64,000 bases of DNA from Escherichia coli (GTDB taxonomy: Bacteria > Pseudomonadota > Gammaproteobacteria > Enterobacterales > Enterobacteriaceae): assembly GCF_003334785.1 (NCBI RefSeq), contig NZ_QOWV01000008.1; one strand, written 5' to 3'. The notes below the pieces were generated by a model, which made no database searches, was not told the origin of the DNA, and was given only the letters and a program-made list of their open reading frames with translations. Both the position numbers and the translations under genes were made by a program. Shown piece by piece: positions 263-43,755 of the stretch (the stretch's first letter is position 1; every line of letters starts with the position of its first letter).

Positions 263-340
263 GAAATTTAAAATAATTTTCTGACCGCGCATTTTTTCAG
301 CAAAAGCCCCGTTAATGTGCCATAAAACAAGCAATTTGCC
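263..340 (-). promoter_or_regulatory. AT-rich UP element / Fis-binding region upstream of rrn P1
   Basis: AT-rich tract (aggaaatttaaaataattttctgacc) immediately upstream of P1 -35 on the minus strand; inferred from known rrn P1 architecture. Confidence 0.5.
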
Positions 341-411
341 GTTTTTGCAACCGTAATCACACTTCCTGGTGGCATACTAAGGAGGAATAAAAAGAAAAAG
401 GAAGATAAGTA

Positions 412-1104
412 ATGCCTTTAAGCGCACAACAGTTAGCTGCACAGAAAAACCTTTCGTATGTTCTGGCTGAGAAGCTGGCGCAACGGATCTTAAAAGGTGA
501 ATATGAACCCGGCACCATTTTGCCCGGTGAGATTGAGCTGGGCGAGCAATTTGGAGTGAGTCGTACAGCGGTACGCGAAGCGGTCAAAACGTTAACGGCA
601 AAAGGGATGGTTTTACCGCGACCGCGAATTGGTACTCGGGTCATGCCACAATCGAACTGGAATTTTCTTGATCAGGAATTGCTTACCTGGTGGATGACAG
701 AAGAGAACTTTCATCAGGTCATCGATCACTTTCTGGTTATGCGTATCTGTCTGGAGCCGCAAGCCTGCCTACTGGCAGCAACGGTTGGCACCGCGGAACA
801 GAAAGCGCATCTCAATACGTTAATGGCCGAAATGGCGGCATTAAAAGAGAACTTTCGCCGTGAACGCTGGATCGAAGTCGATATGGCCTGGCATGAGCAT
901 ATCTATGAAATGAGCGCCAATCCGTTTTTGACCTCATTCGCCTCGCTATTCCATTCGGTTTATCACACTTACTTCACGTCAATTACCAGCGACACAGTGA
1001 TAAAGCTGGATCTGCATCAGGCGATTGTCGATGCGATTATCCAAAGCGATGGCGACGCGGCATTTAAAGCTTGTCAGGCGCTGCTACGCTCACCTGATAA
1101 GTGA
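412..1104 (+). CDS. yieP: GntR/FadR-family transcriptional regulator YieP
   Basis: 230-aa ORF; N-terminal winged-HTH (GEQFGVSRTAVREAVKTL) and FCD-type C-terminal domain; synteny next to hsrA. Confidence 0.9.
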   Translation: MPLSAQQLAAQKNLSYVLAEKLAQRILKGEYEPGTILPGEIELGEQFGVSRTAVREAVKTLTAKGMVLPRPRIGTRVMPQSNWNFLDQELLTWWMTEENFHQVIDHFLVMRICLEPQACLLAATVGTAEQKAHLNTLMAEMAALKENFRRERWIEVDMAWHEHIYEMSANPFLTSFASLFHSVYHTYFTSITSDTVIKLDLHQAIVDAIIQSDGDAAFKACQALLRSPDK

Positions 1105-1126
1105 TAACCCGATAACAGGACATTGA

Positions 1127-2554
1127 ATGAGCGATAAAAAGAAGCGCAGTATGGCGGGTTTGCCGTGGATCGCGGCGATGGCCTTCTTCATGCAGGCACT
1201 TGATGCCACTATTCTTAATACCGCCTTACCCGCAATCGCTCATAGCCTTAATCGTTCTCCTCTCGCGATGCAATCAGCCATCATCAGTTATACGCTGACG
1301 GTGGCGATGCTTATTCCGGTAAGCGGATGGCTAGCCGATCGCTTCGGTACGCGTCGCATTTTTACCCTTGCCGTGAGTCTGTTCACATTGGGTTCTCTGG
1401 CCTGCGCACTTTCTAATTCGCTACCACAGCTGGTTGTCTTCCGGGTTATTCAGGGGATAGGCGGCGCAATGATGATGCCTGTTGCTCGGCTGGCCTTACT
1501 GCGCGCTTATCCTCGTAATGAACTTCTTCCAGTATTGAATTTTGTCGCCATGCCGGGTCTGGTGGGGCCAATTTTAGGCCCCGTTCTTGGCGGCGTGCTG
1601 GTCACCTGGGCAACCTGGCACTGGATATTTTTAATCAATATCCCCATAGGTATTGCGGGCCTTCTTTACGCGCGCAAACATATGCCCAATTTCACCACCG
1701 CACGACGCAGATTCGATATCACTGGCTTTTTGCTGTTTGGCCTCAGCCTTGTTCTCTTCTCAAGCGGAATAGAGCTATTCGGGGAAAAGATTGTCGCCAG
1801 CTGGATTGCCTTGACGGTAATTGTCACCAGCATCGGGTTACTGCTTCTCTATATTCTCCATGCACGACGCACGCCAAACCCATTAATTTCATTAGATTTA
1901 TTTAAAACCCGCACTTTCTCGATCGGTATCGTAGGCAATATTGCAACCCGTCTGGGGACCGGCTGTGTACCGTTCCTTATGCCATTGATGTTACAGGTAG
2001 GATTTGGTTATCAGGCGTTTATTGCTGGCTGTATGATGGCACCGACAGCGTTAGGTTCCATTATTGCAAAATCGATGGTTACCCAAGTCTTACGTCGTCT
2101 GGGCTATCGCCATACGTTAGTGGGGATCACGGTGATTATTGGGCTAATGATCGCTCAGTTCTCTTTGCAATCACCAGCAATGGCTATATGGATGCTGATC
2201 TTGCCGTTGTTTATATTAGGGATGGCTATGTCGACGCAGTTTACCGCGATGAATACCATCACACTTGCCGATCTGACCGATGACAATGCCAGCAGCGGTA
2301 ACAGTGTTCTGGCGGTCACGCAGCAACTGTCGATTAGTTTAGGCGTTGCTGTAAGTGCGGCCGTCCTTCGCGTTTATGAAGGAATGGAAGGCACAACGAC
2401 TGTCGAACAATTCCACTATACGTTTATCACAATGGGCATTATTACTGTTGCTTCAGCAGCAATGTTCATGCTTCTGAAAACAACCGATGGTAATAATTTG
2501 ATCAAAAGACAGCGTAAATCTAAGCCGAACCGCGTTCCATCAGAATCGGAGTAA
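1127..2554 (+). CDS. hsrA: MFS transporter HsrA (YieO), 14-TMS drug:H+ antiporter family
   Basis: 475-aa hydrophobic ORF with MFS motifs ([11 protein letters not shown]); synteny between yieP and rbsR. Confidence 0.9.
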
Positions 2555-3502
2555 GTTGTAATCGTTGTTGCTGAAGGGTCGGCTGGGTTATCCGATGGAT
2601 GAGTACATCAATCGCCAGCTCCCCCAGTTCATCTTTCGGTTGGTGGATAGTGGTTAATGGTGGCGTCATAAAGCTTGCCAGTTCGATATCGTCATAGCCA
2701 ATCACCGCGATATCCTGCGGAACCTGTAACTCTGCCTGATATAACGCCTGGTAAACGCCAACAGCCATAGCGTCATTTCCGGTAAAGACGGCCTGAGGAC
2801 GCAGCGGATGTGATAGCAGTTGGCGCATAGCGTCAAACCCGCCGTTAAATTCAAAATCACCAGTGACTTCATAGCCATCAGGAATGTTGAGACCCGCACG
2901 TTTCATCGCCGCCCGATAACCTTCCAACCGCAGGCGCGCCGGAGTTTTATCCAGCGGGCCGGTAATACAGGCGATACGGGTATGACCTTTATCGATCAGA
3001 TATTGCGTTGCTAAGTCTCCGCCCAGCAACGAGTTATCCTGAATAAGATCGCTGTCGCAGCCCAGTCCATCATCACAGTAGGCACTGTCGGATAACGTTG
3101 CATGATTTCACGCGAAGGTTGATGCGTTTCGGTGCACAGTAACAGCAAGCCATCAACGCGTTTTTGCATCAGCGTTTCCAGATTGCGATTCATCCGCTGT
3201 TCATCGCCTTCGGTATTGCAAAGGACGAGACTATAACCGCGTTCGAAGCAGCTGCGTTCAACGCCACGCACCAGTTCTGAATAGAAAGGATTGGTACTGG
3301 CAGTGATCAACATGCCAATGGTATGTGTTTGATTGAGTTTGAGGCTACGCGCCAGAGCTGATGGCGCGTAATTGAGTTCTTTAATCGCCGCTTCAACTTT
3401 GGCGGTAATCGCTTCACTGACGAAGCGATCTTTATTGATAACGTGAGAAACTGTTGAGGTAGAAACGCCCGCCAGGCGGGCAACATCTTTCATTGTAGCC
3501 AA
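2520..3502 (-). pseudogene. rbsR: rbsR, LacI-family ribose operon repressor, disrupted by frameshift
   Basis: Two overlapping ORFs in different frames: 3011..3502 holds the N-terminal HTH half ([23 protein letters not shown]...VMMDW, then out-of-frame tail [16 protein letters not shown]), and 2520..3029 holds the C-terminal half ([20 protein letters not shown]...MERGSA). In-frame upstream extension of the second ORF reads [15 protein letters not shown]. Consistent with deletion of about 10 bp (codons for P-F-D-G in the RbsR sequence as I recall it) near 3040..3045. Confidence 0.8.
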
Positions 3503-3505
3503 GCG

Positions 3506-4435
3506 TCACCTCTGCCTGTCTAAAAATGCGTCGATCTCTTCACGCCACGGTACGGAAGGTTGTGCGCCTTTACGTGTTACGGCAATCGCAGCGGCAGCAT
3601 GGGCAAAACGAATCGCCTCTGGCAATGGTTTTTCTTCCAGCAATGCCGTGATTAACGCACCGTTAAAGGTATCTCCGGCAGCAATGGTATCGACAGCCTG
3701 CACCCGGAATCCAGGAACGCGCTGACCTTCACCATTCACGCTAGCCCATACACCACGACTTCCTAAAGTAATCAGTACAGTACGGATACCTTTTTCATGC
3801 AGTACCTGCGCCGCCTTCGCTGCATCTTCATCATTTTCAACACGAATACCGGTGAGCTTTTCTGCTTCCGTTTCGTTTGGCGTAATAATGTCCACCAGCG
3901 CCAGCAGTTCGTCAGGAAGTTCGCGAGCCGGAGCCGGGTTAAGCGCAACGATAGTCTTATTTTGATGGGCGATTTTCGCCGCTGCCATCACACTTTCGAG
4001 TGGTGATTCCAGCTGCATTAATAATGCTGACGCGTTGGCAATACGCTCACGTTGCGCTTCCACCAGCGCCGGGGAAAGGGCAGCATTAGCGCCGGCATGA
4101 ATACCGATGACATTCTCACCTTCGCCATTAACAAAAATCAGCGCCACACCTGTTGATTCGCCTTTGATCACGCTGACCGGAGTAATATCAATGTTATCAG
4201 TGGCGAGCTGCTGGCGAACGCTCTCACCAATGCTGTCATCACCCGTACAGGCAATAAACGCGATATTCGCACCGCTACGCCCAGCAGCCACAGCCTGATT
4301 CGCGCCTTTGCCGCCAAATGCAACCTGATAGTGGTTACCGGTTACGGTTTCGCCTGGAGTAGGAAAAGATTGAAGATTAAGAATGTGGTCAGCATTAATG
4401 CTGCCAAGAACAACGAGGCTGCCTGCGTTTTGCAT
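3506..4435 (-). CDS. rbsK: ribokinase
   Basis: ORF 3506..4462; start taken at MQNAGSLVVLGSINADH (309 aa). PfkB-family motifs (GGKGANQA; DTIAAGDTF); rbs operon synteny. Confidence 0.92.
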   Translation of the reverse strand: MQNAGSLVVLGSINADHILNLQSFPTPGETVTGNHYQVAFGGKGANQAVAAGRSGANIAFIACTGDDSIGESVRQQLATDNIDITPVSVIKGESTGVALIFVNGEGENVIGIHAGANAALSPALVEAQRERIANASALLMQLESPLESVMAAAKIAHQNKTIVALNPAPARELPDELLALVDIITPNETEAEKLTGIRVENDEDAAKAAQVLHEKGIRTVLITLGSRGVWASVNGEGQRVPGFRVQAVDTIAAGDTFNGALITALLEEKPLPEAIRFAHAAAAIAVTRKGAQPSVPWREEIDAFLDRQR

Positions 4436-4560
4436 ATTCGGGATGTCCATAAAATGCGCCACCGTGTTAGGGTGGCGCGTGCCCTGCTTTTCTTTATATT
4501 ACACGTTCATCTGTCGATGACGTATTTATGTCACCATCAGGTCATACAACCTGATTAAAA

Positions 4561-5451
4561 CTACTGCTTAACAACCAGTTTCAGATCAACCGGATACTTA
4601 GCCTGAACTTTCTCGCCTTTCAGCACTTTATCTGCGGTTTCGACGCCTTTCGCGCCAATCTGATCGGGTAGCTGAGCGATAGTCGCTGCTAGTTTGCCAT
4701 CATTCACCGCTTTTTCGCCATCCGGTGTACCGTCAAATCCGACGACCATCACATCCGATTTACCGGCAGTTTGCAGTGCGCGCAGCGCGCCCAGCGCCAT
4801 TTCATCATTCTGCGCGAATACAGCCTGAACATCCGGATGAGCGGTCAACAGGTTCTGCATTACGTTCAAACCTTTAGTGCGATCAAAATCTGCTGGCTGG
4901 CTGGCAAGAACATTAAACTTGTGAGCAGCAACGGCCTGCTGGAAGCCTTCGCCACGTTCACGGGCTGCGGATGTACCAGCAATGCCTTGCAGCTCGATAA
5001 CTTTGGCACCTTCACCCGCTTTCTTCGCGATGTAATCACCAGCGATTTTGCCGCCCAGTACGTTATCAGAAGCAATGTGGCTCACCACTTCACCTTTCGT
5101 TGCCTGGCGGTCAAGAGTGATAACCGGGATGTTCGCCTGGTTAGCCATCTTCACAGCATTACCCACTGCGTCGGAGTCGGTCGGGTTAATCAGCAGAATT
5201 TTTGTGCCGCGAACGGTTAAGTCCTGCACGTTCGCCAGCTCTTTCGCCGGGTTGTTCTGGGAGTCCAGCACCACCAGGTTATAGCCAAGTTTATCCGCCT
5301 CTTTCTGCGCGCCATCTTTCAGCGATACAAAGAACGGGTTGTTAAGCGTGGAGACCACCAGCGCGATGGTGTCTTTTGCCATCGCATTCGCACTGACGGT
5401 GGCGCTTAGCGCAACAGCGGAAACCAGGGTAGCCAGTTTTTTCATGTTCAT
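4561..5451 (-). CDS. rbsB: periplasmic ribose-binding protein of ribose ABC transporter
   Basis: ORF 4561..5457; start taken at [10 protein letters not shown] (296 aa); signal peptide ...SANAMA|KD; matches RbsB. Confidence 0.93.
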
Positions 5452-5475
5452 ATTCAAGATGTCCTGTAGTCGTTA

Positions 5476-6441
5476 TTACTGCTTTTTGTTGTCTACCAGC
5501 ACCGCCAGCAAAATCACCACCGCTTTGACGATCATCTGGTAATAGGAGGAAACACCTAACAAATTCAATCCATTATTAAGGAAGCCAAGAATTAATGCGC
5601 CGATCAACGTCCCAACAATGCGACCTTTTCCGCCCGCCAGACTCGTACCGCCCAGAACCACCGCAGCAATAGCATCCAGCTCATAGCCAGTCCCCGCCGT
5701 GGGTTGTGCGGAGGAGAGACGCGCCACTTCAATGATCCCGGCCAGCGATGCCAGCAGACCACAAAGAGAATAGACGATGATTTTGATTTTATTGACGTTG
5801 ATACCAGAAAGACGCGTTGCCGCTTCGTTGCCGCCCAGCGCGTAGATGTAACGCCCCAGACGCGTGTGATGCAGCATGTACCAGGCCGCGAGGAAGACAA
5901 TCCCCATGATCCAGACTGGCGTCGGTACGCCCAGCGGACGACCAATACCAAACCAGCCAAACAGATCGGCGTTCTCAGTAAAGCCGGTATTCACTGGGCT
6001 ACCGTTGGTATAAACCATGGTCACGCCGCGCAGTAAAAGCATCATAACCAGCGTAGCGATAAACGCCTGGACGCGACCTTTCGCTACAATCACCCCGGTT
6101 ACCGCACCAATTGCGGCACCTAACGCGAGAGCAGCAGCGACAGCCACCAGCGCATTGACTTCAATGCCGACGATAGATGCAGCAACTGCGCCGGTCAGCG
6201 CCAACAGAGAACCTACCGATAAGTCGATGCCCGACGTCAGGATCACCAGCGTCATCCCGACCGCCATAATGGCGTTCACTGAGGTTTGCTGGAGAATATT
6301 GAATAAGTTATTGATGGTGAAAAAGTTCGGGCTTAACGTCGAGACAATCGCGATCAGCACCAGCAGAGCGATAAGCGATTTCTGCTCCATCAGCCACGCT
6401 TTCGTGAAATAACGGCGACCAGAGACAGTCTGGGTTGTCAT
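5476..6441 (-). CDS. rbsC: ribose ABC transporter permease
   Basis: 321-aa polytopic membrane ORF; matches RbsC; operon synteny. Confidence 0.93.
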   Translation of the reverse strand: MTTQTVSGRRYFTKAWLMEQKSLIALLVLIAIVSTLSPNFFTINNLFNILQQTSVNAIMAVGMTLVILTSGIDLSVGSLLALTGAVAASIVGIEVNALVAVAAALALGAAIGAVTGVIVAKGRVQAFIATLVMMLLLRGVTMVYTNGSPVNTGFTENADLFGWFGIGRPLGVPTPVWIMGIVFLAAWYMLHHTRLGRYIYALGGNEAATRLSGINVNKIKIIVYSLCGLLASLAGIIEVARLSSAQPTAGTGYELDAIAAVVLGGTSLAGGKGRIVGTLIGALILGFLNNGLNLLGVSSYYQMIVKAVVILLAVLVDNKKQ

Positions 6442-6445
6442 TTTT

Positions 6446-7951
6446 TTACTCCTGATTCACGCGATTAAGCTTGCCCACAGCGGCAGCCATTAACACTTCC
6501 TGGGTGGCCTGCTCACGAGTAAATTCCCCGCTGAGATGCCCTTCATGCATGACGATGATGCGATCGCTCATGCCTAATACTTCTGGCATCTCCGATGACA
6601 CCAGAATGATGCTCAAGCCATCGGCTTTGAACTGGTTAATCAGTTGATAGATCTCTTTTTTCGCGCCGACATCTACGCCACGGGTAGGTTCATCAAGGAT
6701 CAACACTTTGGGGCGTGTCATCAGACCGCGGGCAATCGCCACTTTTTGCTGATTGCCACCGGAAAGCAGACCAATTGCCTGTTCCATCGACGGAGTTTTC
6801 ACATTAAACAGACGAATGAAATCACTCACAGCCTGCTGTTCATCGGCATGCTTCAAACTGCCGCCAGCGCGGCTGAAGTAGCGCAGCGCTGTCAGCGACA
6901 TGTTCTCTTTTACTGACATGCCCAACACTAAACCGTCACGTTTACGGTCTTCGGAGATATACACAATGCCGTTTGCCAGGCCATCCTGCGGTGAACGGGT
7001 AACGACTTCATGCCCATCCAGGGTGACGTAACCGCTGGTGCGCGGTAGTGCGCCGTAGAGCACTTTCATCAGTTCGGTACGACCTGCGCCCATCAAACCA
7101 GAGACGCCAAGAATTTCGCCTTTGCGTAAAGTAAAAGAGACATCGTTAACGCCAGGTCCGCAGAGATTATCGACTTTCAGGCGGATATCTCCCGGCGCTT
7201 TGTCCAGGTGCGGATATTGATCTTCCAGCTTGCGACCCACCATCATCTCAATCAGCGAATCTTCGGTCAGTGATGCCACTTCGCGCTCAGCAATAAATTG
7301 CCCATCACGAAAAACGGTAACGTCATCGCAAATCTCGAAGATTTCTTTCATGCGGTGGGAGATATAGACAATACCGCGGCCTTGCGATTTCAGCTCGCGG
7401 ATGACGCGGAACAGGGATTCGGTTTCGGTATCGGTCAGCGCATCGGTCGGTTCATCCATAATGATGACTTTCGACTCAAAGCTCAGCACTTTGGCGATTT
7501 CAACCATTTGCTGGTCACCGATGGAAAGATCGCCCACCAGCTTGTCGCTTTTAAAGCGCAGGTTAAGTTTAGCCAGCAATTTATCCGCTTCGGCATACAT
7601 GGTTTTCCAGTCAATTTTGCCAAAGCGATTAACAAACTCACGACCGAGGAAAATGTTTTCGGCAATGGTCAACTGCGGGATCAGGTTCAGTTCCTGATGG
7701 ATAATCCCAATCCCGGCTTCCTGGGAAGATTTTGGCCCGGTAAATGTCGTTTCTTTCCCCAGCCATAAAAGCGTACCGGCATCGCGAGTATAGATGCCAG
7801 TAAGCACTTTCATCATGGTGGATTTACCCGCGCCGTTTTCGCCCACCAGCGCCATCACGCGGCCCGGATAGACATTTAACGCTGCGCCCGAGAGGGCTTT
7901 TACGCCCGGGAAGGCTTTATCGATGCCTTTAAGCTGAAGTAATGCTTCCAT
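6446..7951 (-). CDS. rbsA: ribose ABC transporter ATP-binding protein (duplicated ABC domains)
   Basis: 501-aa ORF with two Walker A motifs (GENGAGKST; GLMGAGRTE) and ABC signature LSGGNQQK. Confidence 0.94.
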
Positions 7952-7958
7952 GACGGCC

Positions 7959-8378
7959 TCAGAACGTCACGCCAGCACAGAGAATGATATTCGCATACGG
8001 AGAACATTCTCCGCTGCGAATTACCGCCTGACTTTCTGCGGTTTGTTGTTTGAATTGTTCATGCGTGGTGTAACGAATTTCAATGGTATTTCCCTGGTGT
8101 TTTTGCAGCTGCTCAAGGTGAGTGAGCAACGTTTCGTGGAGTTGCGGATTATGGTGTTTGATCTCTTCCGCGATAATGGCCGCCTCGACCTGCATTTCAT
8201 TTGTGACGACGCCCAGCACCTGCATAAAAGAAGGTACACCCTGGGTTAATGCCATATCGATACGCGTTGTACTTTTGGGGATGGGTAAACCAGCATCACA
8301 CACCACCAGCGTATCGGTATGTCCCAGACGGGAGATCACCGATGAAATATCAGAATTAAGAACGGTGCCTTTTTTCAT
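7959..8378 (-). CDS. rbsD: D-ribose pyranase
   Basis: ORF 7959..8414; start taken at [12 protein letters not shown] (139 aa), preceded by GGAG Shine-Dalgarno on the minus strand. Confidence 0.9.
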
Positions 8379-8389
8379 TTTTTTCTCCA

Positions 8390-8409
8390 TCAGCGAAACG
8401 TTTCGCTGA
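8390..8409. promoter_or_regulatory. RbsR operator: perfect 20-bp palindrome in rbsD promoter/leader
   Basis: tcagcgaaacgtttcgctga is a perfect inverted repeat about 12 bp upstream of the rbsD start codon; LacI-family operator architecture. Confidence 0.85.
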
Positions 8410-8499
8410 CCCACAGTTTAATCCTGACTGAGTTGGGAAAACCATCGTGACGTTACGGAAATGTGATCAACCTCGAAACGTTTTACATGGTGATTAACC

Positions 8500-8540
8500 A
8501 TGAAAACAAAAACGCCCCCTTATGAAGAAAGGAGGCGTCT
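8500..8540 (-). terminator. probable intrinsic terminator downstream of kup
   Basis: Inverted repeat acgccccc (8512..8519) / ggaggcgt (8531..8538) followed on the minus strand by a T-run (plus-strand gaaaacaaaaa 8502..8511). Confidence 0.6.
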
Positions 8541-8544
8541 GGCG

Positions 8545-10413
8545 TTAGATTTCGACCTGAGTACCCAGTTCGATAACCCTGTTTGGCGGGATTTCAAATT
8601 GATCTGGTGCACGCAGCGCATTACGTTGCAGCAGCAAGTACAGCTTGCCGCGCAGACGCAAATACCACGGGCGTTTGCCGAGGATCAACGACTCATGCGA
8701 CATAAAGAAGGAGGTTTCCATCATCCGGCAACTTAATCCTTCCAGACCGCAGCGGTGGAAAACTTCTTCTACGTTTGGCGTTTCTCGCCAACCATAACTT
8801 GCCACCACGCGCCAGAAAGTGGGCGACAGTTGTTCAATCTGTACCCGACGGACGTTATGGACATATGGAGCGTCTTCGGTGCGCAGAGTTAACAGAATCA
8901 CCCGCTCATGCAATACCTTGTTATGTTTAAGGTTATGCATCAGCGCAAAGGGAATGACGTTGATTGCACGCGACATATACACCGCGGTCCCGGGCACGCG
9001 AACAGGCGGTGATTTCTCCAGCGAAGCAATCATCGCTTCCAGAGAGTTACCATGTTCATGCATCCGCCGCAGCAAGCGGAAACGCTCGCTCTTCCAGGTG
9101 GTCATCACGATAAACATCACAGTACCGAGGCTCAATGGCAACCAGCCGCCGGAGAGCAGTTTATCGAGGTTAGCGGTGAACAATGGAATATCGACACAAA
9201 GGAAAGCAATCAGGATCAGCGCAACAAAATACTTATTCCAGTGCCAGTTCTGACGTGCCACGGTAGTCGAGAGAATAGACGTCAGCACCATGGTTCCGGT
9301 CACCGCAATCCCGTACGCCGCCGCCAGGTTGCTGGAGTGCTCAAAGCTGACAATCACAATCACGACCGCGACATAGAGCATCCAGTTCACAAACGGAATA
9401 TAGATTTGCCCTGACTCCATTTCGGAGGTGTGAATAATGCGCATCGGCGACAAATATCCCAGACGTACCGCCTGACGCGTCAATGAGAAGACGCCAGAGA
9501 TAACCGCCTGCGAGGCAATTACCGTCGCCAGTGCGGCGATGATCAGCAGCGGGATCAGCGCCCAGTCCGGTGCCAACAGGAAGAACGGGTTCTTAATCGC
9601 TTCCGGGTTCTTTAACAACAGCGCTCCCTGACCGAAGTAATTAAGGGTCAAGGAAGGTAATACGACGGTGAACCACGCCAGGCGAATAGGGAACTTACCA
9701 AAGTGCCCCATATCAGCATACAGCGCCTCGACCCCCGTAATCGACAACACCACTGCCCCTAATGCAATAAAAGAAACCGTTTTGTATTCAAGGAAGAAAT
9801 GCACCGCCCACATTGGATTCAGCGCATGCAGCACTTCCGGGTTAGCAATAATGCTACGTAACCCCAGTCCTGCCAGAATCAAAAACCAGGTCAGCATGAT
9901 CGGCGCAAACAGCTTACCGACCATAGCCGTGCCATGTTTTTGAATCATAAATAATAAAGTGAGAACGATAATTGAGAGGGGAACTATCCAGGTATCCAGC
10001 TGCGGGGCGACGATTTCCAGACCTTCAATGGCTGACATCACCGAAATAGCGGGTGTTATGACGACTTCACCATAGAAAAAGCTGCCGCCGATTAGCCCCA
10101 TAATCACCAGCATTGATGTGGTTCGCGCCGACGTATTACGCCCGGCAAGCGACATCAACGTCAGGATCCCCCCCTCACCGGCGTTATCTGCCCGCATCAC
10201 GAAGGTGAGATATTTAATGGAAACCACAAAGATTAGCAGCCAGAAGATCAGCGATAAAAAGCCAAACACGGCATCGCGTTCAACGCCAAAACCAAACTGG
10301 CCGGACAAACATTCACGAAGTGTATATAACGGGCTGGTACCAATATCGCCGTAGACAACTCCAATCGCCGCGAGGGTAATCGCGGGCAATGATTGCTTAT
10401 TATCAGTGCTCAT
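8545..10413 (-). CDS. kup: low-affinity K+ uptake transporter Kup (TrkD), KUP/HAK family
   Basis: 622-aa ORF, about 12 TMS plus hydrophilic C-terminus; matches Kup. Confidence 0.94.
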
Positions 10414-10635
10414 AGACTAGTCTTTCGTTGAAATATGAAATGTGTGCTTAGTCCCTTGGCCCACAAAAAAGCGCACAGTATGCACGATTAACGGCAAAAT
10501 CGTACTCCTAAATGCGGCCACATTAACCTGGCTCAAAGAAAAATACCCCCCCTTTGAGACTATTTTAGCCACCAGCAAGAAACGTCTATACTCGCAATTT
10601 ACGCAGAACTTTTGACGAAAGGACGCCACTTCATT

Positions 10636-12132
10636 ATGGCTCACCCTCATTTATTAGCGGAAAGAATTTCCCGCCTGAGCAGTTCGTTGGAAAAGGGGCT
10701 TTATGAACGTAGCCACGCCATCCGCTTGTGTTTATTAGCGGCATTAAGTGGTGAAAGTGTGTTCCTCCTTGGCCCGCCAGGTATTGCCAAAAGTTTGATC
10801 GCCCGGCGCTTAAAATTCGCCTTTCAGAATGCCCGCGCGTTTGAATATCTGATGACCCGCTTCTCCACGCCGGAAGAAGTTTTTGGTCCCCTTTCTATTC
10901 AGGCGCTAAAAGATGAAGGGCGCTATGAACGTTTAACCAGCGGTTACCTGCCGGAAGCAGAAATTGTCTTTCTGGATGAGATCTGGAAAGCGGGCCCGGC
11001 AATTCTTAATACCTTGCTCACCGCCATTAACGAGCGCCAGTTCCGCAACGGTGCACACGTAGAAAAAATCCCGATGCGTCTGCTGGTGGCGGCCTCCAAC
11101 GAGCTGCCGGAAGCAGACAGCAGTCTGGAAGCGTTATATGACCGCATGCTGATTCGTCTGTGGTTAGATAAAGTGCAGGATAAAGCGAATTTCCGCTCCA
11201 TGCTGACCAGTCAACAGGATGAAAACGACAATCCGGTTCCTGATGCCTTGCAGGTCACAGATGAAGAATATGAACGCTGGCAGAAAGAGATTGGTGAAAT
11301 TACGCTGCCCGATCATGTATTTGAGCTGATTTTTATGCTGCGCCAGCAACTGGATAAATTACCGGATGCGCCTTATGTCTCGGATCGTCGCTGGAAAAAA
11401 GCGATCCGATTATTGCAGGCCAGCGCCTTTTTTAGCGGTCGCAGTGCTGTTGCCCCGGTAGATCTCATTTTGCTGAAAGATTGCCTGTGGTATGACGCGC
11501 AAAGCCTGAATTTGATACAACAACAAATTGATGTATTGATGACCGGTCACGCCTGGCAACAGCAAGGGATGTTGACTCGCCTTGGCGCGATTGTGCAACG
11601 TCACCTGCAACTCCAGCAGCAACAAAGCGATAAAACAGCCTTAACGGTAATTCGTCTGGGCGGCATTTTCAGCCGTCGTCAGCAGTATCAACTTCCTGTT
11701 AACGTTACTGCTTCCACTCTGACTCTACTGCTGCAAAAACCGTTAAAACTGCATGATATGGAAGTGGTTCATATCTCCTTTGAGCGTAGCGCGCTGGAAC
11801 AGTGGCTGAGCAAAGGTGGTGAAATTCGCGGTAAACTGAACGGTATCGGCTTTGCCCAGAAACTGAATCTGGAAGTTGATAGCGCCCAACATCTTGTCGT
11901 TCGCGATGTAAGTTTACAAGGCAGTACGCTGGCACTTCCCGGTTCATCGGCTGAAGGTCTGCCTGGTGAAATAAAACAACAACTGGAAGAGCTTGAAAGC
12001 GACTGGCGCAAGCAACACGCTTTATTCAGCGAACAGCAAAAATGTCTGTTTATCCCTGGCGACTGGTTAGGTCGCATTGAAGCCAGCCTACAGGATGTCG
12101 GTGCACAGATTCGCCAGGCACAACAATGCTAA
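10636..12132 (+). CDS. ravA: MoxR-family AAA+ ATPase RavA
   Basis: ORF 10612..12132; start taken at [12 protein letters not shown] (498 aa); Walker A GPPGIAKS, Walker B VFLDEIWK. Confidence 0.92.
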
Positions 12133-13577
12133 CGCTGGATACGCTTAATGTGATGCTGGCCGTCAGCGAAGAGGGATTGATCGAAGAGATGATCATCGCA
12201 CTGCTGGCCTCACCGCAGCTGGCGGTCTTCTTTGAAAAATTCCCACGCCTGAAGGCGGCAATCACTGATGATGTTCCCCGCTGGCGTGAAGCGCTGCGCA
12301 GTCGGCTGAAAGATGCCCGAGTCCCGCCGGAACTCACCGAAGAGGTGATGTGCTATCAGCAAAGCCAGCTCCTCTCCACGCCACAGTTTATTGTGCAGCT
12401 ACCACAGATCCTGGACTTACTGCATCGTCTGAATTCTCCATGGGCAGAACAAGCCCGACAGTTGGTTGATGCTAACAGCACGATCACTTCAGCGTTACAC
12501 ACGCTTTTTCTCCAGCGTTGGCGTTTAAGTCTGATCGTGCAAGCAACGACGTTAAATCAACAGCTATTAGAAGAAGAACGCGAACAACTGTTGAGTGAAG
12601 TTCAGGAACGCATGACGCTGAGCGGACAACTTGAACCGATTCTCGCAGATAACAATACTGCAGCTGGTCGTCTGTGGGATATGAGCGCCGGTCAGCTTAA
12701 ACGTGGCGACTATCAGTTGATTGTGAAATACGGTGAATTTCTTAACGAACATCCGGAACTGAAACGCCTGGCAGAGCAGCTGGGGCGTTCTCGGGAAGCC
12801 AAATCAATACCGCGCAACGATGCGCAGATGGAAACCTTCCGCACCATGGTGCGCGAACCGGCGACGGTTCCTGAGCAGGTTGATGGTCTGCAACAAAGCG
12901 ATGATATTTTACGTCTCCTGCCGCCAGAACTGGCGACACTAGGGATAACGGAACTGGAGTATGAGTTTTACCGTCGGCTGGTGGAAAAACAGTTGCTCAC
13001 CTATCGCCTGCACGGTGAGTCGTGGCGTGAAAAAGTGATCGAACGTCCGGTGGTACATAAAGATTACGATGAACAGCCGCGCGGGCCGTTTATTGTCTGT
13101 GTGGATACTTCCGGCTCAATGGGCGGCTTTAATGAACAGTGTGCGAAAGCGTTCTGCCTGGCCTTGATGCGCATTGCTCTCGCAGAAAACCGGCGCTGCT
13201 ATATTATGCTATTTTCCACCGAGATCGTCCGTTATGAGCTTTCAGGCCCACAAGGCATCGAACAAGCAATCCGTTTTTTAAGCCAGCAGTTTCGTGGCGG
13301 CACCGATCTTGCCAGTTGTTTTCGCGCCATTATGGAACGCTTGCAAAGCAGGGAATGGTTTGATGCCGATGCGGTGGTGATTTCTGATTTTATCGCTCAG
13401 CGGTTGCCTGACGACGTGACGAGTAAAGTGAAAGAGCTGCAGCGGGTACATCAGCATCGCTTTCATGCCGTGGCGATGTCGGCACACGGCAAACCCGGCA
13501 TCATGCGCATTTTCGATCATATCTGGCGCTTTGATACCGGGATGCGAAGCCGCCTGCTCAGACGCTGGCGGCGATAA
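12126..13577 (+). CDS. viaA: von Willebrand factor A-domain protein ViaA (RavA partner)
   Basis: 483-aa ORF; MIDAS motif in [11 protein letters not shown]; start overlaps ravA stop by 7 nt. Confidence 0.92.
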
Positions 13578-13581
13578 ATTA

Positions 13582-14574
13582 TTACAGCAGAGAAGGGACG
13601 CTCTCGCGAACAGCAGCTGGCCATACTCCACACTGAACCTGGCCGATATGCGGCAGTTGCAGCAGCAGCATAGTCAAACGAGACTGGCCGATACCGCCGC
13701 CGATGGTCTGCGGCATTTCACCGCGCAGCAGCGCCTGATGCCACTCCAGCTCCAGGCGATCTTCGTCACCGGTCAGCGCCAGTTGATGCTTCAGCGTGTC
13801 GGCATCTACACGGATCCCCATGGAGGAAAGCTCAAACGCATCTTCCAGTACCGGGTTCCACACCAGAATATCGCCGTTCAGACCCGCATGGCCCAGCTCT
13901 GACGGGGTGCTCCAGTCATCATAATCCGGTGCGCGCACGTCGTGGCGATGACCATCGCTCAGCTTGCCGCCAATCCCGACAAGGAATACCGCGCCAAGAT
14001 CTTTCGCTATCGCCCGCTCACGCCCTTTGGCATCAAGATCCGGATAACGAGACAGTAACTCCTGGCTGTGTACGAAGTGGATCTGATCCGGCAGGAACGG
14101 TGCCAGGCCAAACTCTTCGCTAACCGCAGCTTCGGTTGCTTTAATTCCCGCCCAGATCGCCTCTACCGTGCTTTTCAGAGTCGAGAATTGACGCTCACCG
14201 TCGCCCATTACGCGTTCCCAGTCCCACTGGTCAACATAGACCGAGTGCAACGGAGAAAGACGGTCTTCATCGGGGCGAAGGGCTTTCATGTGCGTGTACA
14301 GCCCTTCGCCCGCGCTGAAGTCGTGTTGCCCTAAGGTCTGACGTTTCCACTTCGCCAGTGAATGAACCACTTCGAACTGGGCATCAGGCAGAGCTTTCAC
14401 TTTTACCTGCACCGCTTTTTCACAGCCCGACAAGTTATCCTGCGTGCCATCCCCCACACGGCTAAGAATCGGCGCCTGGACTTCGATCAGCCCCAGACGT
14501 TCTTCCAGTTGACGAGAAAAGTGAGATTTCACGAAGCTAATTTGACGTTGTTTGGCAATGTAAGCGGTTTTCAT
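13582..14574 (-). CDS. asnA: aspartate--ammonia ligase (asparagine synthetase A)
   Basis: 330-aa [22 protein letters not shown]...; class II aaRS-like fold; synteny with divergent asnC. Confidence 0.95.
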
Positions 14575-14725
14575 TTTTTATACTCCTGCGTCCTGTTGCT
14601 TATGATTAAGCAACAAAAACCGACACACATGCAATAATCATTCAATAAAAAGCCTAACTCACTTTTGATTCATTAAAAAAGAAGGCTAAAATAGAATGAA
14701 TCATCAATCCGCATAAGAAAATCCT

Positions 14726-15184
14726 ATGGAAAATTATCTGATCGACAATCTGGACCGTGGCATCCTGGAAGCATTAATGGGCAATGCGCGCACCGCTTAC
14801 GCCGAACTGGCGAAACAATTTGGCGTCAGTCCGGGGACGATTCACGTTCGAGTAGAGAAAATGAAGCAGGCGGGGATCATTACCGGGGCGCGTATTGATG
14901 TCAGCCCGAAGCAGCTCGGTTATGACGTAGGCTGCTTTATCGGCATTATATTAAAGAGCGCCAAAGACTACCCTTCCGCGCTGGCAAAGCTGGAAAGCCT
15001 TGATGAAGTCACTGAAGCCTATTACACAACCGGCCACTACAGCATCTTTATAAAAGTGATGTGCCGTTCGATCGACGCTCTCCAGCATGTACTTATCAAC
15101 AAGATCCAAACAATTGATGAAATTCAGTCCACCGAGACATTGATCGTCCTGCAAAACCCGATCATGCGTACCATCAAGCCCTGA
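14726..15184 (+). CDS. asnC: Lrp/AsnC-family transcriptional regulator AsnC
   Basis: 152-aa ORF with N-terminal HTH and RAM domain; divergent from asnA. Confidence 0.95.
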   Translation: MENYLIDNLDRGILEALMGNARTAYAELAKQFGVSPGTIHVRVEKMKQAGIITGARIDVSPKQLGYDVGCFIGIILKSAKDYPSALAKLESLDEVTEAYYTTGHYSIFIKVMCRSIDALQHVLINKIQTIDEIQSTETLIVLQNPIMRTIKP

Positions 15185-15273
15185 TCGGCTTTTTTAATCC
15201 CATACTTTTCCACAGGTAGATCCCAACGCGTTCACAGCGTACAATACGCCACTCTTAATAAAGGTGGCGGTTT

Positions 15274-15717
15274 ATGGCAGATATCACTCTTATCAGCGGC
15301 AGCACCCTCGGCGGTGCCGAATATGTAGCAGAACACCTGGCTGAAAAGCTGGAAGAGGCGGGTTTTACCACCGAAACGCTGCACGGTCCGCTGTTAGAAG
15401 ATTTACCTGCCTCAGGGATCTGGCTGGTTATCAGCTCCACCCACGGTGCCGGAGATATTCCGGACAACCTTTCTCCTTTCTATGAAGCATTGCAGGAACA
15501 GAAGCCCGATCTTTCTGCAGTCCGCTTTGGCGCAATCGGTATTGGCAGTCGTGAATATGACACCTTTTGTGGGGCTATCGATAAACTCGAGGCAGAACTC
15601 AAAAATTCCGGTGCAAAACAGACAGGCGAAACACTGAAGATCAACATTCTTGATCACGACATTCCGGAAGATCCGGCAGAAGAATGGCTGGGATCGTGGG
15701 TTAATTTACTCAAATAA
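15274..15717 (+). CDS. mioC: flavodoxin-like FMN-binding protein MioC
   Basis: 147-aa ORF MADITLISGSTLGGAEYVAEHLA...; immediately flanks oriC. Confidence 0.95.
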   Translation: MADITLISGSTLGGAEYVAEHLAEKLEEAGFTTETLHGPLLEDLPASGIWLVISSTHGAGDIPDNLSPFYEALQEQKPDLSAVRFGAIGIGSREYDTFCGAIDKLEAELKNSGAKQTGETLKINILDHDIPEDPAEEWLGSWVNLLK

Positions 15718-15734
15718 GTATACAGATCGTGCGA

Positions 15735-16010
15735 TCTACTGTGGATAACTCTGTCAGGAAGCTTGGATCAACCGGTAGTTATCCAAAGAACAACTGTTGT
15801 TCAGTTTTTGAGTTGTGTATAACCCCTCATTCTGATCCCAGCTTATACGGTCCAGGATCACCGATCATTCACAGTTAATGATCCTTTCCAGGTTGTTGAT
15901 CTTAAAAGCCGGATCCTTGTTATCCACAGGGCAGTGCGATCCTAATAAGAGATCACAATAGAACAGATCTCTAAATAAATAGATCTTCTTTTTAATACCC
16001 AGGATCCCAG
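15735..16010. other. oriC: chromosomal replication origin oriC
   Basis: DnaA boxes R4 tgtggataa (15740..15748), R3 ttatccaaa (15779..15787), R2 tgtgtataa (15814..15822), R1 ttatccaca (15920..15928). Three AT-rich 13-mers as reverse complements of GATCTnTTnTTTT (15942..15954, 15957..15969, 15973..15985) and an AT cluster (15986..15998). 14 GATC sites between 15725 and 16006. Sequence matches canonical E. coli oriC in reverse orientation. Confidence 0.97.

Positions 16011-35071: not shown

Positions 35072-43755
<8,684 letters not shown>

Follow-up and report, generated by a model that had tools for sequence, protein, structure and literature searches.

The rbs locus of this Escherichia coli contig raises the question of whether a ribose operon with an intact operator and intact structural genes is still governed by its repressor, RbsR, and whether the lesion that interrupts rbsR is one of those already described. 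The sequence-only reading had found the repressor encoded as two overlapping ORFs in different frames, and a six-frame ORF list reproduces both exactly, as ORFs of 163 and 169 aa that overlap by 19 nt (Table 1). The window, by which is meant the entire stretch of 64,000 nt that was analysed, was compared with the reverse strand of MG1655 (NC_000913.3, from about 3,941,738 down to 3,877,729). As in K-12, rbsR lies directly downstream of rbsK, and the alignment places a 10-bp gap in it at window 3058/3059 on the minus strand, corresponding to NC_000913.3 3938671-3938680. The missing bases, CCGTTCGATG on the gene strand, are nt 445-454 and comprise codons P149, F150 and D151 together with the first base of G152, which makes exact the earlier estimate that about 10 bp and the residues P-F-D-G had been lost. 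When CCGTTCGATG is put back, the K-12 rbsR is regenerated base for base. There is no microhomology at the deletion endpoints, so the gap cannot slide and its placement is unambiguous; direct-repeat slippage was rejected as the mechanism on the same ground. The site is neither a homopolymer nor a repeat, and the gap is the sole indel over 63 kb of the alignment.

Table 1. Features of the rbs locus and single-nucleotide differences from MG1655, in window coordinates.
Feature	Position	Strand	Remarks
rbsR pseudogene	2520..3502	-	983 nt vs 993; TTG start 3502..3500, TAG stop 2522..2520; otherwise identical to MG1655 b3753
C-terminal ORF, 169 aa	2520..3029	-	internal TTG start; RbsR residues 162-330, rest of sugar-binding core; ends LMERGSA
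N-terminal ORF, 163 aa	3011..3502	-	RbsR residues 1-148 (HTH, hinge, first part of N-subdomain) plus 15 out-of-frame residues, then stop
Deletion junction	3058..3059	-	CCGTTCGATG absent between these two bases
rbsK, ribokinase	3506..4435	-	intact; no difference from MG1655; annotation transferred
rbsZ small RNA region (rbsB 3' end/UTR)	4451..4684	-	intact; no difference from MG1655; annotated at NC_000913.3 3937045-3937278
rbsB, periplasmic ribose-binding protein	4561..5451	-	intact, with I192T (ATT to ACT at window 4877)
rbsC, permease	5476..6441	-	intact; identical to MG1655
rbsA, ABC ATPase	6446..7951	-	intact; identical to MG1655
rbsD, D-ribose pyranase	7959..8378	-	intact; identical to MG1655
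RbsR operator	8390..8409		perfect 20-bp palindrome TCAGCGAAACGTTTCGCTGA; 11 nt upstream of rbsD ATG; identical to MG1655
SNP, intergenic	85		common to EC416
SNP, rbsB I192T	4877		common to EC416
SNP, viaA Q209H	12752		common to EC416; very common allele
SNP, pstC P164S	31820		common to 364_BP0073
SNP, bglH S84R (gene 39509-41125)	39760		protein variant in 39 collection blocks
SNP, cbrC, synonymous	43507		absent from one genome compared (364_BP0073)
SNP, tnaB I135T	51090		absent from one genome compared (strain 300709)
SNP, tnaA, synonymous	52862		common to strain 300709

The identity of the interrupted gene is clear. Over residues 2-330 the repaired protein has the same sequence as PDB 9ny7, 'Ribose operon repressor'; the gene comes last in the order rbsD-A-C-B-K-R, and a palindromic operator stands at the promoter of rbsD. 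In its wild-type form RbsR is a full-length, canonical LacI/GalR (LacI/PurR-type) repressor and matches PurR over residues 2-329 (E=5e-95). In the window, precomputed Pfam hits assign the LacI/GalR HTH domain (PF00356, LacI) and PF00532 to the N-terminal ORF, whose residues 1-148 are identical to those of K-12 RbsR, while the C-terminal ORF is hit by PF00532, PF13407 and PF13377. Neither ORF contains residues 149-161, and the HTH and the core (PF00532/PF13377) are not joined in a single chain of about 330-340 aa, as they are in the family. Because the core domains are split over two frames, in the 163-aa and 169-aa ORFs, the locus is, on its reading frames, a pseudogene of a LacI/GalR family member and not a functional member. 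The internal TTG with which the C-terminal ORF starts is preceded, 7 nt upstream, by an AGGA, but wild-type rbsR has this Shine-Dalgarno-like motif (window 3020-3055, minus strand) as well, and it is probably coincidental; the 169-aa ORF is probably not translated, or of no use by itself. The cluster of proteins around the truncated N-terminal product comprises 992 members, and many of these are short or partial forms of RbsR; the 169-aa C-terminal ORF of the window was called in identical form on 52 contigs of other strains. Split forms of rbsR are evidently frequent.

The rest of the rbs locus bears out the proposal that the operator and rbsDACBK are intact. The operator halves, TCAGCGAAAC and GTTTCGCTGA, form a perfect 10+10 palindrome, and the genes rbsDACBK are all full length. 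Within 3503..8414 the single difference from MG1655 is that at window 4877, and the resulting RbsB I192T allele is also found in EC416, a natural isolate from a pig, as WP_001056273.1. As a side observation, rbsA and kup are uncalled and mnmG is split in two ORFs in GCA_053347075.1 (CM130020.1), at 3354-8511 and 13971-15916; this is an unrelated assembly, apparently an error-rich one from long reads, without bearing on the rbsR deletion.

The sequence-only reading had also treated the deletion as the only clear deviation from a K-12-like reference. It is indeed the only indel and the only gene disruption in the window; however, at 99.97% identity to MG1655 the window also differs by eight SNPs, of which five are missense, two synonymous and one intergenic. 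At least six of these SNPs represent standing variation, being present in other natural isolates or metagenome contigs, and the K-12 framing has to be given up. A K-12 origin, including one from a mutagenised or mutator laboratory derivative, which the number of SNPs in 64 kb and the share of missense changes had brought into consideration, was rejected on the occurrence of at least six of the SNPs in EC416, 364_BP0073, strain 300709 and contigs in which BglH S84R is found. Since rbsR still ends in TAG, the recoded strain C321.deltaA could be excluded too. The SNPs in cbrC and tnaB may be private to the lineage, like the rbsR deletion. The window belongs to a natural, phylogroup-A-like, K-12-like E. 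coli, without being K-12. Traced through its BglH variant, it corresponds to positions 1-64000 of contig QOWV01000008.1 in draft assembly GCA_003334785.1: bglH has the same coordinates in both, and the 21.6 kb of the contig compared matches window 29509-51125 exactly. Elsewhere in the window, oriC (15754-15985) is identical to that of MG1655, and the atp, pst, bgl, tna and dnaA-gyrB regions contain no indels relative to it. Over window 25001-50000, several K-12 strains (W3110, JW-5, Trp01 and 'K-12' CP178206) match in two pieces, with subject spans about 0.8 or 1.3 kb longer than the query, which suggests that they carry IS insertions absent from both the window and MG1655.

The deletion is rare. 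A 40-mer spanning the junction occurs in none of 5,426 complete E. coli genomes, BW2952 included, and the undeleted 40-mer that served as positive control is found in 5,155 of them. The wild-type 40-mer (rbsR nt 430-469) has no match in the other 271 genomes, which polymorphism, IS insertions or loss of rbsR could explain. The best matches to a 1.3-kb query all span 1,311 subject bases vs the 1,301 bases of the query, and the junction was not found in a metagenome contig collection. The flanking haplotype, by contrast with the deletion, is ordinary and common. Across window 1-25000, EC416 is set apart by one SNP and the 10 bp alone, and its RbsR is intact (WP_000224470.1). The ViaA H209 allele occurs in more than 13,000 collection blocks, and in the contigs examined a single full-length RbsR ORF of 330-332 aa adjoins it. 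Since EC416 carries the same flanking haplotype with an intact rbsR, the deletion is derived and recent, a rare event on a common background. The suggestion that it could serve as a lineage marker holds for a small natural lineage, known from four SRA runs and one assembly, and for nothing wider.

Translation from the normal TTG would yield RbsR residues 1-148 and then, before the stop, 15 wrong residues. Such a fragment would retain the DNA-reading head and the hinge, but the C-subdomain would be gone, as would much of the core that serves ligand binding and dimerisation. Repressors of the LacI family, such as LacI and PurR, grip palindromic operators tightly only as dimers, which the core holds together; headpieces on their own are weak binders. 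With much of the core lost, the fragment would not be expected to stay on the operator at 8390-8409, and the allele should be null. Expression of rbsDACBK, with the rbsD mRNA and the RbsZ sRNA, would then no longer require ribose and would be under the control of cAMP-CRP alone. Constitutive, ribose-independent rbs expression is a sensible predicted phenotype, and disruption of rbsR has been read in the literature as giving it. Further downstream, faster use of ribose, lower RpoS via the rbsD mRNA, and altered purine regulation might be expected; the rbsD mRNA has been described in a preprint as lowering RpoS, and RbsR is annotated as a dual regulator touching purine metabolism. A second rbsR copy, or another repressor, might lie elsewhere in the genome, beyond this 64-kb window; with that reserve, the reading that a recent, lineage-specific 10-bp deletion makes rbsR null and would leave the rbs operon derepressed is given a probability of about 0.85.

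This reading depends in part on the deletion being real. The window comes from a draft assembly (GCA_003334785.1) and the junction is in no complete genome, as might be expected of an assembly or sequencing artefact in a strain whose rbsR is intact. However, an exact-sequence look-up found the exact 163-aa truncated product in four SRA runs, in Logan assemblies that had been built separately; the runs are of limited independence in that they may all be of one strain or include the reads behind the assembly. Both contigs compared are 100% identical to the window, junction included: one of 13.2 kb from SRR3825895 over window 268-13502, and one of 5.2 kb from SRR1840539 over window 369-5559. Because the truncated product is present in four runs and the site is no homopolymer or repeat, an artefact peculiar to one assembly is very unlikely. 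A clean 10-bp loss in sequence of this kind would also be an atypical error, and an artefact of any sort is hard to credit. Somewhat less far-fetched, though still improbable, is the idea that repression is partly kept, either because the head fragment acts as a weak, ribose-blind repressor or because both halves are made and reassemble. The HTH and hinge are intact, and the AGGA before the internal TTG could support the making of the second half. The break, on the other hand, falls inside the N-subdomain of the core, with 13 residues in neither ORF and 15 foreign ones added; isolated headpieces of LacI and PurR bind very weakly, and tight binding needs dimerisation. The literature, moreover, reads frame-disrupting rbsR alleles as constitutive. 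The broader view that the locus keeps some activity, as a weak, ribose-blind or two-piece repressor, or that it is an adaptive switch, fixed in a natural lineage, which also lowers RpoS through constitutive rbsD mRNA and RbsZ, is accorded a similarly small chance. Both the rbsD mRNA and RbsZ are regulatory RNAs with links to the control of RpoS.

A null allele may also be real without being adaptive, and this is the alternative that carries the most weight. The lesion could be selectively neutral, or decay that arose in storage, with no adaptation to ribose-rich niches, a prospect that falls only somewhat short of an even chance. Its extreme rarity, in four runs and one assembly with no complete genome and no metagenome contig, fits a young mutation that has not spread. 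Against neutrality, the mutational convergence on rbsR seen within patients was interpreted as positive selection (PMC7845604), and independent laboratory lineages have also fixed rbsR lesions. Rarity thus favours a young neutral event and the convergence in the literature favours selection. The deletion is a clean 10-bp marker by which a small natural lineage of E. coli can be told, with little significance beyond strain bookkeeping. A different question is whether the lesion is rbsR22 of MC4100, which the sequence-only reading had raised as a possible identity, or another known K-12 laboratory allele, with the window coming from a K-12 laboratory strain. The near identity of the window to MG1655 and the fact that MC4100-type strains are rbsR mutants make this tempting. 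The chance that it is so is nevertheless close to negligible: the rbsR of BW2952 is split by IS2 at another position and keeps the 10 bp, the lesion of JM109 and XL1-Blue is a 1-bp deletion, the junction is in no K-12 or other complete genome, and the eight SNPs of the window are absent from K-12 strains, at least six of them being found in other natural E. coli. A tempting mis-assignment is thereby corrected, in that the window is not K-12 and its lesion is not the MC4100 allele.

The preferred reading, a null rbsR produced by a recent deletion in a natural strain, can be placed among the forms of the gene that are already known. K-12 RbsR (b3753; LacI/GalR; PDB 9ny7/9ny8) agrees with the window in all other bases of the gene, in the adjacency to rbsK, the TTG start, the 3' overlap with mdtD/hsrA and the operator palindrome, but has a continuous frame of 330 codons where the window is without nt 445-454. 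BW2952 (NC_012759.1), a sequenced MC4100 derivative, resembles the window in having a mid-gene disruption with rbsDACBK intact. Its rbsR, however, consists of two RefSeq pseudogene fragments that flank an IS2 transposase (2969-4303 of the extracted locus); the break is at the equivalent of window ~2966-2971, about 90 bp further into the gene than the 10-bp deletion, and CCGTTCGATG is retained. From the pedigree of the strain, we infer that this IS2 insertion is the allele originally named rbsR22. MC4100 (rbsR22) has been described in a preprint as ribose-insensitive and constitutive for rbsD. In JM109 and XL1-Blue, of the DH1 lineage, rbsR is listed in a paper's supplement as 'frameshift (delta 1 bp)'. 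This is likewise a small frameshifting deletion in an otherwise intact rbs locus, but it belongs to a K-12 laboratory lineage and removes 1 bp, whereas the only indel of the window removes 10; the DH1/JM109/XL1-Blue allele was rejected as the identity of the lesion on this difference.

The closest parallel in natural isolates comes from a within-patient study of extraintestinal E. coli, in which rbsR was the most convergently mutated gene, with nine events in three patients (PMC7845604). The mutations included deletions, insertions and SNPs, some of them frame-disrupting; each patient had at least one frame-disrupting rbsR mutation, and the authors inferred selection for constitutive rbs expression (PMC7845604). 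Those mutations are in other strains and are other alleles. The rbsR of the window is a previously uncatalogued allele, but inactivation of rbsR is itself recurrent and has already been described in laboratory lineages and clinical isolates. Seen beside these, the strain is one more natural example of convergence on rbsR, a gene that has been hit repeatedly in both clinical and laboratory evolution.
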